Below, piece by piece: positions 1 to 30,444 of a stretch of 41,609 nt of DNA; position 1 is the first letter of the stretch; the number at the start of each line of letters is the position of its first letter. A model generated the notes under the pieces. The model was not told the DNA's origin, searched no databases, and saw only the letters and a list, made by a program, of their open reading frames with translations. Location: IMG/VR virus record IMGVR_UViG_2939152649_000003. One strand, written 5' to 3'. The DNA comes from a virus (Duplodnaviria; Heunggongvirae; Uroviricota; Caudoviricetes). Made by a program: the position numbers and the translations under genes.

Positions 1-549
1 TCAGCTAGCTGGAAACTTTTTATACAGAGTTGAGAGCCCTACTCCATACGTTTTTGATACGCTTTGTCGTGATTCACCGGTTGCCATCCGCTCCCCCATT
101 TCCCGCCATTGCTCATCCGTGAACTTAGGCCTGCGACCACCAACTCGCCCTTTTGCCCTGGCTACGGCCAGCCCTGCTAAGGTACGTTCGCTATTAAGAT
201 CAGATTCATATTGTGCTGCGGAAAGGATGTTACGAAAGTTATAGCGGCCGCTGGCTGTTTTGAGATCCACGCCATCGGTAATACTGCGGAAGTTGATACC
301 CTTTTCCTGTAACTGCTGGAACATCAACAGCGCATGCAGAACGTTGCGGCCTATCCTGTCCAGCTTCCAGACCACCAGTTCATCCCCCGGCTGCATAGTG
401 GCGATCAGCCGTTTTAGAACCGGCCGATTCGATTTCCTCCCGCTGGCATGCTCTTCAAAAATTTTCTCACAACCCGCTGACTTGAGCGCCGTTAGTTGCA
501 ATTCAGTGTCCTGGTGGTTTGTTGATACTCGGGCATAACCGTAAATCAT
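1..549 (-). CDS. pin: Serine DNA invertase (Gin/Pin/Hin/Cin family)
   Basis: 182-aa product begins MIYGYARVSTNHQDTELQ (resolvase catalytic Ser motif) and ends with an HTH (SRQSVSKTYGVGLSTLYKK); strongly resembles Gin/Pin. ATG at 549 follows an AGGAGA RBS. The ORF-track start at 594 is an upstream extension. Confidence 0.9.
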   Translation of the reverse strand: MIYGYARVSTNHQDTELQLTALKSAGCEKIFEEHASGRKSNRPVLKRLIATMQPGDELVVWKLDRIGRNVLHALLMFQQLQEKGINFRSITDGVDLKTASGRYNFRNILSAAQYESDLNSERTLAGLAVARAKGRVGGRRPKFTDEQWREMGERMATGESRQSVSKTYGVGLSTLYKKFPAS

Positions 550-608
550 GGGATTTCTCCTGTTATGAAAACAGGAGAAACGGCGAAGCATCACCAGATT
601 TTTGATGG

Positions 609-6281: not shown

Positions 6282-7348
6282 TGTGGAGCCGTTCGCTGTA
6301 GGGCCGTATTCGATTGTAAATCACGCGCCCCTCTGGCCATACACATGAGATCCATATACCACGGATTCCCTCTCGTATCGCCGGTGTAGCTGATTGACTG
6401 AACTATGTAAACGCCATCAGTTGCCACACTGGCGGGCTGCGCAAGCGTCGCGCTGCCTGTACTAAGATTACCATTATCATTTGCCTCAGTAATCCTTGCC
6501 TGTGATCTTTGGATCTCATCGTTCGGTAATTGCGAGCGATACACCGAGTCCTGGTTCAACTGAATAAGCCCGTTAACCCGAATGTTTGGATTAATGAGAC
6601 AGCGCACATTAACGCCTGCCCCCATGGTTTGCTGAGGCATACCGACCAGGCCAGTTTTGGTGTTAAGCACGATCGCTTCATGGAGATATTTATTCTCAGG
6701 CACCATTTGCAGCTGGCCGTCGACAAATTGCCAGTTAGCCTCGCACTGCGCCGCTAGGTTGCTCATGTAGTCGCGCGTTGCGCCGAAGAAGACGCGACCG
6801 CGTGGCATCACCCTGTCAGGGAACTGCCCGGTGATGCCCTGGGTGATGCCGTAAGGCGAAAAGTCCTTCATCAGAAGTGTATGCACGTCGGCAAGCTTAT
6901 ATCCTGCCGCCAGGCTGCCGGACGATACGGCTTCGTTGAACGCCTTATGACCATCTACCGACTGAATTAGCGTAAAAATATCGGTAGGATTATCGCGCCC
7001 GGTTATCGTAAAACGAATCTCCCCATCAAAAATGACTCCGTAATTTTGCCCGCGCGTCTGGCCGGTTTGCTCAGATGAAATCTCGGTAACCTGCCCAACC
7101 TCGCTTTCAGTAACCGTCGGCGCCAGGCCGTTATAACCGGCTATGATGGTAATGCGAGAAAACTCATCCCCCGTAATCCGGGTGATTGTGTCACGCTTGA
7201 GGTTGTAAATTTTAAGCGTCGCCACACGTGGCCACATCGAGTTAAACCAGTCGATTGCGAAGGTAACTTTAAAGTCCGACAGGGATATGCCATTCCCCTT
7301 GTCGTTCAGAAGCCGCAGTTCAAAATGGCGATTCCAGTTAATAGTCAT
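6278..7348 (-). CDS. Tail/baseplate hub-like protein
   Basis: 356-aa ORF in the baseplate cluster downstream of the tape measure gene. Assigned by position and size only. Confidence 0.45.
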   Translation of the reverse strand: MTINWNRHFELRLLNDKGNGISLSDFKVTFAIDWFNSMWPRVATLKIYNLKRDTITRITGDEFSRITIIAGYNGLAPTVTESEVGQVTEISSEQTGQTRGQNYGVIFDGEIRFTITGRDNPTDIFTLIQSVDGHKAFNEAVSSGSLAAGYKLADVHTLLMKDFSPYGITQGITGQFPDRVMPRGRVFFGATRDYMSNLAAQCEANWQFVDGQLQMVPENKYLHEAIVLNTKTGLVGMPQQTMGAGVNVRCLINPNIRVNGLIQLNQDSVYRSQLPNDEIQRSQARITEANDNGNLSTGSATLAQPASVATDGVYIVQSISYTGDTRGNPWYMDLMCMARGARDLQSNTALQRTAPQ

Positions 7349-24459: not shown

Positions 24460-24761
24460 TCTATAAATTCTTTGCCACTTCCCGGAGTGGCCACGCTCAT
24501 GCCCTTGAGCTGCTGTCGCATCATCGCCGCTTATCACCGGTGCGCGTCTGGCTTTCGCGCTGCTTTACCGGAGCTATTTTTAATCTATGACCCTGACCCG
24601 TCACTACACAGGCTCGCTCAATGGCGACTCGGGGCAGCATCATGACTGCTGCATTGCCTTTCGGCTACGGTGTGTCCGTTCTACTCTACATTTTCATACC
24701 CTCCAGAAACGGCAAAGCCCCGCGGGGTTAACCGCAGGGCTTTAAACGAAGGCAGTAACCC

Positions 24762-26454: not shown

Positions 26455-26664
26455 TCACCCCCAGACCTTCTGACGGAGTGACCGCGGCGTACGTTCCTGC
26501 CGGTGCGCCTCCGGCAGCCGGGCGCTGACGGTCCAGGTGACGTAATCGGGATTCAGGCTTCGCTCTACCTTCACGCCGCGGCGCCGGTATTCCGCCATGA
26601 GCTCGTCGGCCTGCTGCGTGGTGCACTCGGTGTGCTGGAACCATGTTTCTTTCATCGGCATCAC
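26455..26664 (-). CDS. Hypothetical nin-region protein
   Basis: 69-aa ORF translationally coupled on both sides. Confidence 0.4.
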   Translation of the reverse strand: MMPMKETWFQHTECTTQQADELMAEYRRRGVKVERSLNPDYVTWTVSARLPEAHRQERTPRSLRQKVWG

Positions 26665-27260
26665 CCCACGAAGCTCATGAGCTGCGCAGCGGCATTATCC
26701 GCGTCGCTACGGCTCTTGAATGCCCTGGACAGGATCCAACGCCACAGAACATCGAGTGCGGCCCTGTAGAGTTGCTGGAACTCGGTTTCGTCCATATTGG
26801 CGAAGGCGATGCTGCGGGGGTGTTTGCGGAGGGTGCCGTCAGGCAGCTGGATCGCGTCGTAGTGGCCGGATTCGATGGTTACCCAGGCGCGGTAGGCGTC
26901 GAATGACTTGCAGGCGCTGATGCTGCCCGTGCGCTTATCAGCGATGCGCTCGAGATATTGCTCAGCGGCATCCAGCAGCGCCCCTTCGTTCCCGCCGTAG
27001 GAGGCCAGAAATCTGGCATAGCCGGTCACCAGCTTGCGTTCGTTGGAAGAGATCGCCCCGCCGGTTGGCTCCCAGTATTCGAACCCGAGGTTTAAAAGCG
27101 CGAAGAAGCGGCGGTGGAAAGCCGGATTGCGGACCTGTTTGAAGTCGGCTACCAGCACGGCGCCGAGTTTGATTTTTGATTGCAGAATATCGCTGGTCTC
27201 CGGCGTCGCGGGGATCAGGATTCCTGATGACTGCTTGATGAGTTGTAGTTCGTGCGCCAT
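26661..27260 (-). CDS. Hypothetical nin-region protein
   Basis: 199-aa ORF upstream of the YbcO-like and RusA genes. Confidence 0.45.
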   Translation of the reverse strand: MAHELQLIKQSSGILIPATPETSDILQSKIKLGAVLVADFKQVRNPAFHRRFFALLNLGFEYWEPTGGAISSNERKLVTGYARFLASYGGNEGALLDAAEQYLERIADKRTGSISACKSFDAYRAWVTIESGHYDAIQLPDGTLRKHPRSIAFANMDETEFQQLYRAALDVLWRWILSRAFKSRSDADNAAAQLMSFVG

Positions 27261-27294
27261 GGTTTCTCTCCGTGGCGCAGTAGGTTACGGTTGT

Positions 27295-27543
27295 TCAGAC
27301 CGTTGATTTCATATTATCAGAAGGTTGGGTTACCCGGTAGCCGAGACGGTTAATAAACTGCATAAAACCATTAGGAGTAAAGACCTCTTCATCATCCAGC
27401 AAAGGCCGCATAGAAACCATGCCATTGACGCGATAAATTAGATGCCTGCCCGATGAAGGAAAGCTAAACACCACGCAGCCGTCAGACCTTCTTACAATGT
27501 CATACCAGTTGTCTTCTGACGTTTGCAAAGCTGAATCACTCAC
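27295..27543 (-). CDS. Hypothetical protein
   Basis: 82-aa ORF between DinI and the nin genes. Confidence 0.4.
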   Translation of the reverse strand: MSDSALQTSEDNWYDIVRRSDGCVVFSFPSSGRHLIYRVNGMVSMRPLLDDEEVFTPNGFMQFINRLGYRVTQPSDNMKSTV

Positions 27544-27660
27544 ATTTATGTTCTCCCTTCGAGCGACTAACAGACGCGATTAAAGATTGTCGGCAGCAGC
27601 ATCAGAGGGTTACGCAAATTGCGGTATTCTGAAAAATGCGCGCCAGCCTTAAGCGCAATT

Positions 27661-27894
27661 CTAATAAAACCAGTCGTCAGCGCTTTCCCAGGTATCCTGG
27701 AGGATTGATTCAATTTTCTTTTTATCGTCCTTGTCACCACCAAAAACACTTAACCCATCGGCCCCGGCACGGCGGATTGTGAGCCTGCAATTGTCATAGT
27801 GATCATTCAGGCGCTTAAGCAGTTCTTTCTCCAGTGCTGGTACTGCGCCTTTAGGAAGTTCTTTCATGCGATCAATGGTTAATTCAACTTTCAC
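27661..27894 (-). CDS. dinI: DinI-like SOS-inducible protein
   Basis: VKVELTIDRMKELPKGAVPAL...ILQDTWESADDWFY aligns along its length with E. coli DinI as recalled. GTG start at 27894 behind a GGGGG RBS. Confidence 0.85.
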   Translation of the reverse strand: MKVELTIDRMKELPKGAVPALEKELLKRLNDHYDNCRLTIRRAGADGLSVFGGDKDDKKKIESILQDTWESADDWFY

Positions 27895-27912
27895 AATGGC
27901 CCCCATTGCACG

Positions 27913-27932
27913 TACTGTGTTTTTATACAGTA
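27913..27932. promoter_or_regulatory. LexA (SOS) box TACTGTGTTTTTATACAGTA
   Basis: Matches CTG-N10-CAG with palindromic TACTG...CAGTA ends, 19 bp upstream of the dinI-like start. Confidence 0.7.
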
Positions 27933-27992
27933 TACCTATGCGCGGAAATGATCAACGTTTTAAGAGCACAAATTGTTAATTTTCTGTCAGTA

Positions 27993-28022
27993 GTAAAAAA
28001 AGAAAACCCGCCGTAGCGGGTT
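27993..28022 (-). terminator. Intrinsic terminator (minus strand) at the accessory-island boundary
   Basis: AACCCGC-CGTA-GCGGGTT with UUCUUUUUUUACUA downstream on the minus strand. Confidence 0.5.
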
Positions 28023-28373
28023 GAATTAGCAGTGTTATATTAAGCGGCAATTTCTTTCTGCCGGCACAATCCCGAGAGATTCGCCCTCTGTATCGCATCA
28101 TCAATGAGCACCTGTATGACCATGAGGCAAAGCGTTATCCAACTTGCATTCATCTTTTTCAATCAGCAAAGGAGTGGTTAGTGCTGTGAGTGGGCTTTGT
28201 TCACTTCATGGTAGATAAATCAGCTATGGATAAGTGATAAGAGGTGAAATCAATCCGAATTAACAACCTGAAGCACATTAATCGGAACACAGATATTAAA
28301 ATCCTAAAGTCTAGTAACAAATAGCCGATATGAGATATTGCTTATCAGTTTAAAAATCATCTATTGAAAAAAT

Positions 28374-28380
28374 GGGGGGG
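28374..28380. repeat. Homopolymeric G7 tract at the 5' end of ORF 28386..28991
   Basis: ATG at 28372 runs into GGGGGG. With G7 that ATG is out of frame and stops after 5 codons; G8 would put it in frame with the 201-aa ORF. Confidence 0.9.
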
Positions 28381-28385
28381 AGGCG

Positions 28386-28991
28386 TTGAAGCGAGTAGAG
28401 CGCGATTTTATCTGTCTGTTTAATTGTGTGTGGTATCAAGATTTCCCTGTGTTCAAAGGTGAATATATCAACCGTTCCAACTGGACCATTCATGTTGGCC
28501 TGGTCATGCGCGAGTGTGCAAAGTTAATGGGCGCAAGAACATTTTTTGAACAAGGCGGGCGTACCGATGCGGTCCTACAATATCCAGACAATCAAATTTT
28601 AACCTATGTTGAGTGGGAGTATAATCAGGCAGACAGAGATAGCGTTAACGAGTTAGACAAACTGCTTGAAAAAAACGACAAGTGCTATTTCTCCACATTC
28701 ATCTCATATTGTCAGCATGAAAACATCAATATTGTTATTGAAAAAGCAAGTAGAATATGGAGTGAAGCAAGCAGGCCTTTGATTTTTTTTCTTATCACCT
28801 ATGAGCCTCAAACGAAAAAACGCCGCCATTTTTTAGAACTCAGAACTTATTTTTTCTCAAACGGCAAAAGAAAACTAGTTCGCAAACAACCTGCGCTTCC
28901 ATGGGATATTGAGCAACGAAATACAATGTCGAAGAAGATGCAGGATAGAAGAGACATAAGGTTTTCACGACAGTCTCGTTTCGAGCCCTAA
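28386..28991 (+). CDS. Hypothetical 201-aa protein (AT-rich accessory gene)
   Basis: ORF beginning at TTG 28386. Contains YPDNQILTYVEWEY and IVIEK, faintly reminiscent of a PD-(D/E)xK nuclease core. Confidence 0.5.
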   Translation: MKRVERDFICLFNCVWYQDFPVFKGEYINRSNWTIHVGLVMRECAKLMGARTFFEQGGRTDAVLQYPDNQILTYVEWEYNQADRDSVNELDKLLEKNDKCYFSTFISYCQHENINIVIEKASRIWSEASRPLIFFLITYEPQTKKRRHFLELRTYFFSNGKRKLVRKQPALPWDIEQRNTMSKKMQDRRDIRFSRQSRFEP

Positions 28992-29171
28992 CTAAAATAT
29001 TCTGTTCGGAGCAACCAAATAGCTCTGGCTTTGCTGTGACCATGTTCGCGGTACCAACGCCTCTCTAGGTCCGCTTCTCGCTCATGGTGGACCAAAATCA
29101 AATCTAAAATGACGTGGCTAAGCGGGAGTACATAGTGAATGACAGGATGCTCCGGGCAGCACCATACTAAT

Positions 29172-29369
29172 TCAGTTCCCGTCAGAGGTAGGCGTTGCTT
29201 CATGATGGGATGAGCGCTCCCTCCAGACAATCCATGCGACAGCCGCCTCCCATGATATATATCCATTACCGCCATTTTTCGCTCTGCGGAGATTAACTGC
29301 ATCACCAAACCTTTCAATGATGAATTTTTCAAATTCTATGCGTTTTTCTTCGTCGATTGTTGAATCCAT
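29172..29369 (-). CDS. Hypothetical small protein
   Basis: 65-aa ORF MDSTIDEEKRIEFEKFIIERFGDAVNLRRAKNGGNGYISWEAAVAWIVW... Preferred over the overlapping 28988..29332 ORF; low certainty. Confidence 0.3.
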   Translation of the reverse strand: MDSTIDEEKRIEFEKFIIERFGDAVNLRRAKNGGNGYISWEAAVAWIVWRERSSHHEATPTSDGN

Positions 29370-29648
29370 ACCTTCCCCAGAAGAGTCCTACGAATCGCTC
29401 TTATTGCATAAAAAATAGCATATACAATAGAGAGTGAAAAACCGACGTAGCGGGTTAACTTTATGTTACTCATGAGTCTTGTCTCGCTGCGACTTAAAAG
29501 CGGAACATTCTCGCGCAAGTTGCGTTGCTAAAGCTACGGGGTTGAATGGCTCTCCATGCCCATTTAAGAAGGCATGCGGTGTGTAGTTGAACGTTATTTA
29601 AAACACAGATAGAATCAAGAAAAATCCTAAATAAATGGAATATTGTTT

Positions 29649-30029
29649 ATGGCTAAGAAAATCGCATTACTGGGCTTTTCTGCTCTTTTTGTTGCAAGTG
29701 TTGCTTTTGCTGAAACGACAAGTAACTGGGTTGAGGTTACTACAGCTGATGATGGCATTTTTTCAGCAAAAAAAGGCACATTTAGAAATGTAAAAGGTGA
29801 TTCATCTGCCTTGTTCATGTATCAAACAAAAAATAAAAAAGTAGAGTACTACAAAGTTAGTATTAAAGATGCCGACTGTGATAGTGGATATGGGGAGATA
29901 AGATTCTTCTATATGGATGGGAAATTAGCTTTCAAAGGTGATTATGTTGCTGATGGGAACAGTGTTGGCGCAGGTATTGGTGATTTTATGTGTGGGGTCA
30001 GAATTGGACTTAACACACAAAAAAGTTAA
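29649..30029 (+). CDS. Secreted hypothetical protein
   Basis: MAKKIALLGFSALFVASVAFA-ETTSN is a typical signal peptide with an AFA-E cleavage site. AT-rich gene. Confidence 0.6.
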   Translation: MAKKIALLGFSALFVASVAFAETTSNWVEVTTADDGIFSAKKGTFRNVKGDSSALFMYQTKNKKVEYYKVSIKDADCDSGYGEIRFFYMDGKLAFKGDYVADGNSVGAGIGDFMCGVRIGLNTQKS

Positions 30030-30069
30030 ATGAGGGGCATTTGTTAAAAAACAATAGCCCCACATTAGA

Positions 30070-30272
30070 TCAATATTGGCTCCGGCATTTCTGGATAAAA
30101 GCTTCTATGCTACGGCGCTCATAGCGAACAACCTTAGCGCTGAACTTTACACGGGGCCAATGTAGACCGGTGTCGGTGTTCTGTATTCCATTTACATAAT
30201 GTTTTTTTGCGTAATTCCCAGCTTCTGGCATACCTCGCCCGGAGTGAGGAGATCATCAGGTTGCTCAGTCAT
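30070..30272 (-). pseudogene. AlpA/Xis-like regulator remnant, disrupted by two frameshifts
   Basis: ATG at 30272 (GAGG RBS) gives MTEQPDDLLTPGEVCQKLGITQKN then a stop. The next frame reads TLCKWNTEH and the third reads GLHWPRVKFSAKVVRYERRSIEAFIQ. Joined, these form a 66-aa AlpA-like protein. Confidence 0.45.
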
Positions 30273-30444
30273 GTTATGCCTCGCTGTTATCTGGGGTGAT
30301 GATTAGCAGCTTCCAGATGGCTGAGACATACATAGCCTGATGTTTCGCATCGACTAGGGCATTATGCATGTCACCTTCAAACGGCATGTCCCGAGTTCTC
30401 CCTTTTCGCCGCTTTCGCGTCGCATATTCTCCAAACGGTATTTA

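Follow-up and report, generated by a model that had tools for sequence, protein, structure and literature searches.

A poly-G run beside an out-of-frame ATG in an enterobacterial-type prophage probably belongs to the ribosome-binding site of a conserved gene with a TTG start

Introduction

Poly-G contingency loci are described in Neisseria, Haemophilus and Campylobacter. In PhasomeIt practice the cut-off for phase variation by a poly-G/C tract is a length of 9 or more, and a switch of seven G's is known in siaD (PMC5953494). The locus described here lies in a prophage-derived window (the whole stretch of DNA analysed, 41,609 nt, virus record IMGVR_UViG_2939152649_000003) and resembles these systems in its 5′ poly-G run, in the accessory character of the gene, in a run length that varies among isolates and in that one tract length brings an ATG into frame. 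In contrast to the contingency loci, the run is located upstream of what appears to be a conserved start and the ORF is never disrupted; it is also shorter than 9, its length is fixed within haplotypes and it is missing from the homologues. The gene also shares features with lambdoid morons, being AT-rich and opposite to the phage operon and occupying a slot that holds other cargo in related prophages, while its cassette is found outside prophages as well. Unlike in morons, neither a promoter nor a terminator was found here by a consensus scan.

The protein invites comparison with restriction endonucleases. The active site of BamHI and OkrAI has the arrangement Glu-Asp-Glu-x-Glu, whose final glutamate is rare among restriction enzymes (PMC3025578). 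The present family has no detectable sequence similarity to these type IIP enzymes, and a methyltransferase is absent both beside the gene and from the prophage studied here. In BamHI and OkrAI the first Glu precedes the Asp by 15–17 residues, whereas in this family the distance is 6, and the conserved C-terminal RxQPALPW and H36 of the family have no known counterpart in either enzyme. The adjacent cognate methyltransferase by which a type II restriction-modification system is defined is likewise missing. NucC, the cyclic-trinucleotide-activated effector endonuclease of CBASS and type III CRISPR systems, has chains of 240–246 residues versus 187 aa here; unlike for NucC, no CBASS or CRISPR genes are found nearby and there is no PADLOC match.

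Results

Organization of the locus

Direct reading of the plus strand reveals a homopolymer of seven G's at 28374–28380, the first of which doubles as the third base of an ATG at 28372–28374. The ATG is followed by six further G's, by AGGCG and then by a TTG at 28386. The features of the locus are the following.

28181–29093, plus strand: single-gene cargo cassette of ~0.9 kb, comprising ~205 nt upstream, the ORF and ~100 nt downstream
28324–28349, plus strand: conserved upstream block GCCGATAT(G/C)AGATATT(G/A)CTTATCAG, from the alignment of cassettes
28372–28389, plus strand: out-of-frame mini-ORF ATG GGG GGG AGG CGT TGA (MGGRR-stop), from direct reading
28374–28380, plus strand: G7 homopolymer at the Shine-Dalgarno position of the TTG, present as G6, G7 or G8 among relatives
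28386–28991, plus strand: ORF of 201 aa with a TTG start, from the ORF listing
28783–28790, plus strand: T8 run inside the ORF
28919–28921, plus strand: A3 run, A4 in all other copies covering the site, a frameshift found by comparison of copies

The earlier note on this DNA had proposed that the G tract gates the ATG as a slipped-strand on/off switch. Its description of the arrangement is borne out: the ATG and the adjoining G7 tract are present, seven G's leave the ATG out of frame with a short MGGRR-stop reading, and TTG 28386 opens the 201-aa ORF. Its expectation that an eighth G would place the ATG in frame is realized in a natural G8 copy (L051), which encodes MGGEALKRVERDF... The TGA of the mini-ORF, at 28387–28389, overlaps the TTG of the long ORF (TTGA). 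No Shine-Dalgarno sequence could be read upstream of ATG 28372, whose upstream context is A-rich and probably unstructured. The tract is the only G/C run of at least seven in the 41.6-kb window; mononucleotide shuffles contain an average of 5.8 such runs, and a single G7 is therefore not above chance.

Start of translation

A search of 5.8 billion proteins yielded 34 relatives, nearly all of 185–191 aa and from Enterobacterales and Pseudomonas, none of which carries a Pfam domain. The N-termini of all 34 align exactly on the TTG codon with the pattern MKR[VI]ERDF[IV][CT]LFNC. Residues 1–21 form a helix that is confidently modelled by AlphaFold and remain conserved (F8, F12 and P21) even in a 68-member alignment reaching down to 20% identity. 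In RefSeq, two E. coli genomes with 99.9% identity to the window have the gene annotated from this TTG. TTG 28386 thus has, by these alignments, the position of the conserved family start, and the N-terminal extension MGGEA that a G8 tract would add has no counterpart in any of the 34 aligned homologues.

The DNA of the relatives, taken from a scan of genome collections, was compared at the start site. Pantoea wallisii (L003) displays AAGGAGG-ttccg-TTG, Candidatus Pantoea deserta AAAGGA-ttactt-TTG and a 96%-identical chromosomal allele AGAGG-cttgcg-TTG, and the Pseudomonas homologues have AAGGAAG-N4-ATG, or GTG, at the corresponding codon. L003, L004 and L039–L041 all use a TTG start behind an ordinary Shine-Dalgarno sequence, and neither an upstream ATG nor a G run was found in the Pantoea, 96%-identical chromosomal and Pseudomonas alleles compared. 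This comparison indicates that the combination of ATG and poly-G is private to one allele, in which the G run occupies the position of the relatives' Shine-Dalgarno sequence.

Tract length among related copies

The tract was compared in 16 near-identical copies, consisting of the window, the two E. coli genomes and 13 further copies recovered from metagenome and viral contigs by a pattern search that allowed any tract length; a wider pattern scan of viral contigs added none. The comparison, which the earlier note had proposed, revealed that the length is not invariant and that G6 (six copies), G7 (nine copies) and G8 (one copy) all occur, lengths that lie below the hypermutable cut-off of 9 or more. 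The 187-aa TTG ORF is intact at every tract length in 14/14 relatives with a complete gene sequence, the remaining relative (L054) ending 55 nt into the gene.

The ~1.3 kb of flanking sequence contains 20 variable sites that define haplotypes. A G at 28553 is common to all six G6 copies, the G8 copy is positioned on an intermediate haplotype and the G7 copies fall into two groups. Tract length differs in none of the 22 pairs of copies separated by at most 3 SNPs, differences being confined to copies at least 4 SNPs apart, and two indel events explain the sample. The SNP haplotype of the window recurs in five more independent copies with full flanks and in a sixth, partial one, all of which are G7.

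An exact-sequence look-up extends these observations to protein records. The in-frame G8 product (MGGEALKRVERDF..., 192 aa) is present on 105 contigs, 35 with the common protein allele and 70 with an A121T allele (P0198 and P0197), and the common 187-aa form (P0035) on 721 contigs. G8 is a real minority state. As its product occurs on two protein alleles, G8 may have arisen repeatedly and more events may have happened than the two indels of the DNA sample. From the distribution over haplotypes, tract length appears to be an ordinary heritable polymorphism, a stable lineage marker and not an on/off switch.

Length of the product and other indels

The 201-aa ORF of the earlier note exists in the window; its length, by contrast, is private to this genome, the product being 187 aa in relatives. 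In each of the 14 other copies with sequence at 28919 there are four A's and the product is 187 aa long. The A3 frameshift exchanges the last 10 residues (...EQRKYNVEEDAG) for a 24-residue tail, which is modelled with low confidence, and so yields 201 versus 187 aa. A 201-aa product is recorded once, in E. coli (P0046, SQE58103.1). The A3 at 28919–28921 reflects either a mutation private to this genome or a homopolymer miscalled in assembly.

A truncated 149-aa product (P0038), known from the protein records of 13 E. coli contigs, diverges at ...RPLIFFL, the segment encoded by the T8 run. Between the window and the prophage of E. coli ES7 there are 26 substitutions over 39 kb and two more 1-bp indels, at 24589 (A versus AA) and 30202 (T7 versus T6).

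The G run as a ribosome-binding site

The G run aligns with the AGGAGG or AGAGG of relatives; at 5–12 nt from the start codon, it is too close for a promoter spacer to be accommodated. The calculated pairing of successive hexamers with CCUCCU is −8.6 kcal/mol at a spacing of 5 nt in G6, 5–6 nt in G7 and 5–7 nt in G8, and equals that of the AGGAGG of P. wallisii at a spacing of 5 (−8.6 kcal/mol). Since the calculated pairing is equal at G6, G7 and G8, each length should pair well with 16S rRNA, and the spacing to the TTG is normal in every case. The argument depends on G-U-tolerant pairing by the G run itself, the perfect GGAGG core being just 2 nt from the TTG and hence too close.

Being upstream of the conserved start, the G run has no influence on the reading frame of the protein, and a change of its length leaves the 187-aa ORF whole in G6, G7 and G8. 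Over the first 177 codons, dN/dS against three alleles without the tract is 0.058, 0.034 and 0.060, values that point to strong purifying selection on the gene, and no degraded gene copies are present in the sample. The mini-ORF is variable by comparison. With G7 it has 5 codons and ends on the TTG, with G6 it runs for 16 codons overlapping the gene and with G8 it is fused in frame; the TTGA stop/start overlap occurs in G7 only and is absent from the G6 and G8 haplotypes and from all other alleles. A role of the mini-ORF as a translational coupling device was rejected, the device being broken in the G6 and G8 lineages, and the mini-ORF is probably incidental.

The best overall explanation, to which we give a probability of about 0.7, is that the G run belongs to the ribosome-binding site of the TTG gene and gates no reading frame. 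Translation would begin at TTG 28386, and in this allele, present in Citrobacter and E. coli, the usual AGGAGG or AGAGG would have been replaced by GGGGGGGAGG, with an ATG at its 5′ edge by chance and the G run serving as the Shine-Dalgarno sequence. Gain or loss of a G upstream of the start would leave the frame unchanged and keep a G-rich 16S rRNA pairing site 5–7 nt away, and because of this length changes would be tolerated and inherited as the G6, G7 and G8 lineage markers. In G8 lineages the in-frame ATG could add five residues (MGGEA), Leu replacing the initiator Met at the former start. The weak TTG start would hold expression low.

Cassette and cargo slot

The segment 28181–29093 alone is 83–86% identical in nucleotides to chromosomal loci outside prophages (L039 and L040) and to P. 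wallisii (L003). Related prophages match the window over 26600–28061 and then diverge with other cargo. Together, the extent of the shared unit and the divergence of the prophages after 28061 define a single-gene cassette of ~0.9 kb in a cargo slot, whose edge is marked by ~28061. Collinearity with many related E. coli prophages ends at about this position, beyond which they carry tRNA-Ile, methyltransferases or other genes.

The GC content falls to 0.36–0.45 at 27600–30200 versus 0.50–0.65 in the flanks. The flanking phage genes are all on the minus strand, opposite to the cassette gene, with DinI, NinB-like DUF1367, RusA and a Q-like antiterminator on one side and DUF550, DUF977 and a replication protein on the other. 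The AT-rich setting that had been described before is confirmed by this drop in GC and by its place between the replication and the nin/DinI genes, and the GC profile and the related prophages agree with the accessory status given to the gene, which is cargo in an AT-rich slot. Homologues elsewhere are found in a P4-like integrase island, in prophage-like regions with KilA-N or resolvase genes, beside an Mrr-type gene and in plain metabolic neighbourhoods. No neighbour is conserved across 32 loci, the adjoining genes that were scanned being unrelated to one another, and searches of phage and plasmid collections gave no match to the cassette.

Within the upstream block at 28324–28349, GCCGATAT is invariant in all enterobacterial cassettes, including those outside prophages, and the block holds a direct repeat GATAT-GA-GATAT. 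It may be a promoter or operator. A consensus scan produced no convincing sigma-70-like promoter or terminator for the plus-strand gene; hand-picked −10/−35 candidates upstream of the gene were discarded as too weak, and a leader RNA or riboswitch upstream was rejected, with no Rfam family and a folding z-score of +1.0.

Several other elements are located around the slot. A strong hairpin followed by a T run is present on the minus strand at 28005–28022, just upstream of dinI. The AT-rich island holds a second plus-strand cargo gene at 29643–30029 (GC ~0.36), encoding a protein of 126–128 aa whose N-terminus is hydrophobic and signal-like and which matched no family; just upstream of the gene, at 29587–29615, is a sigma-70-like site, TTGAAC-17-TAGAAT. 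At 30274–30393, on the minus strand, there is a remnant of a 3′–5′ exoribonuclease-domain gene, which near-identical E. coli prophages carry as an annotated pseudogene fragment.

Protein family and predicted fold

A profile search of 1.84 billion representatives returned 183 relatives only, mostly stand-alone proteins of 185–235 aa. Distant members (33–37% identity) occur in Dehalococcoidia genomes and one in a genome binned as Bathyarchaeia. In 68 diverse members E55, E76 and E78 are invariant; H36, D61, W77, E89, Y108 and W125 are at least 90% conserved in both 68-sequence alignments, while K92 and W173 each reach this level in only one of the two, a different one for each.

AlphaFold models were obtained with pLDDT 83 from the 34 sequences and with pLDDT 94 and pTM 0.89 from the 68. 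The layout is alpha-alpha-beta3-alpha-beta-alpha-beta3, in which D61 is positioned just before the second strand (62–65) and E76-x-E78 within the third (71–81). Both models rank BamHI, OkrAI, BstYI, NucC and BglII at the top, and Foldseek gave weak matches only. The predicted alpha/beta core adopts the fold of solved restriction endonucleases (PD-(D/E)xK, BamHI-like branch), and the acidic D...(D/E)x(K/E) motif with an upstream E is found both in the alignment and at the strand positions of the model. The earlier note had read faint PD-(D/E)xK-like motifs in the product and had proposed structure prediction; the restriction-endonuclease fold of the two models is in line with that reading. At the level of sequence, no relevant match to the protein was found in Pfam, NCBIfam, PHROG or PADLOC, Pfam gave nothing relevant on the 68 relatives and PDB sequence searches with two profiles gave no meaningful match. 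The likeness to restriction endonucleases, as modelled, is at the level of the fold only.

The E55, D61...E76-W-E78 cluster of the modelled family fits the BamHI/OkrAI pattern. As to nuclease activity, target and biological role, which we infer, the product is most likely a Mg2+-dependent DNA endonuclease of ~187 aa. With its own upstream region and its orientation opposite to the phage genes the cassette would be a moron, and the putative nuclease would probably act in mobile-element conflicts, for example in exclusion or defence. No cognate methyltransferase was found among the gene neighbours scanned, and none is annotated in the near-identical prophage; that a restriction-type nuclease should stand alone, with no methylase, counts against the best explanation and needs accounting for. 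An alternative, unlikely but deserving of weight, is that the protein has a restriction-endonuclease-like fold and cuts no DNA, acting instead as a regulator that binds DNA or nucleotides, or as some other class of enzyme.

Two neighbourhoods of homologues may be recorded here. One Pseudomonas subclade (L015, L017 and L018, ~6555–7229) has a co-oriented ORF immediately downstream of the homologue, of 222 aa and without a Pfam match in L017, of similar size in L018 and shorter in L015. In L009 (4574–5587) the genes next to the homologue encode an Mrr-type restriction endonuclease and a dynamin-like GTPase.

Discussion

Among the other readings of the tract the one that survives best, improbable as it is, is a translational rheostat, in which a non-binary phase-variable tract would set a potentially toxic nuclease at one of three levels of expression: G6 with an interfering 16-codon uORF over the TTG, G7 with a 5-codon uORF that could couple, and G8 with an in-frame ATG start. 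All three lengths are natural, the G8 product being present on 105 contigs and two protein alleles, the context upstream of the ATG is A-rich and probably unstructured, and the tract changes ~250 times faster than the average site when two events at one site are set against ~20 variable sites in 1.3 kb. Against these observations stands the lack of variation within haplotypes (0/22 close pairs), together with the restriction of the ATG and tract to a single allele, the missing Shine-Dalgarno sequence before the ATG and a length below the usual thresholds of phase variation. The other homopolymers of the gene (A3/A4 and T8) also vary, as ordinary indel noise would, and mismatch repair is active in E. 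coli. The reading of the G run as a three-state translational dial, set on a solitary BamHI-like nuclease of prophages and with phase variation acting through the ribosome-binding region, is improbable, a shade more so than the rheostat as such. If it were true, lysogen sub-lineages would differ in their level of a costly defence or exclusion nuclease, and phase variation would operate in an enterobacterium with working mismatch repair.

An assembly error, by which a true G8 (or G6) was miscalled as the G7 of the window, is very improbable. The window genome does have private 1-bp homopolymer differences that could be sequencing errors, at 28919, 24589 and 30202, but the independent copies that share its SNP haplotype, five full and one partial, are all G7. 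Least credible is the switch proposed in the earlier note, with the ATG as the real start and slipped-strand mispairing turning the gene OFF at G7 and G6 and ON at G8: gene callers do give a 192-aa product where G8 puts the ATG in frame and tract length does vary among relatives, yet 15/16 copies would be OFF under dN/dS of 0.03–0.06 and with no decay, the family N-terminus is at the TTG in 34/34 homologues with MGGEA unmatched among them, relatives use the TTG behind a normal Shine-Dalgarno sequence and have neither ATG nor G run, the TTG ORF is whole in G6, G7 and G8 with no length difference in 22 close pairs, and seven G's fall short of the usual poly-G/C length of 9 or more (PMC5953494).

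Near the start of the window there is a variable element that is more credible than the G run. An invertase-type serine recombinase (16–564, minus strand) adjoins two opposed tail-fibre assembly genes within 1–2200, a 57-nt inverted repeat (979–1035 and 1733–1789) is 77% identical between its arms, and 644–2146 shows hardly any similarity to the prophage of E. coli ES7, which is otherwise 99.9% identical. The region 1–2200 looks like a swapped or invertible host-range cassette.

Reading the G run as the probable ribosome-binding site of a conserved TTG gene corrects the contingency-switch look of a poly-G tract next to an out-of-frame ATG. A false annotation as a phase-variable prophage gene is thereby avoided and the 201-aa length is exposed as a private frameshift. 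What comes into view is a rare, unannotated family of solitary proteins with a predicted BamHI-like fold and an E/D/ExE cluster, whose gene moves as a cassette of its own between prophages and islands in Enterobacterales and Pseudomonas and which has distant relatives in Dehalococcoidia.
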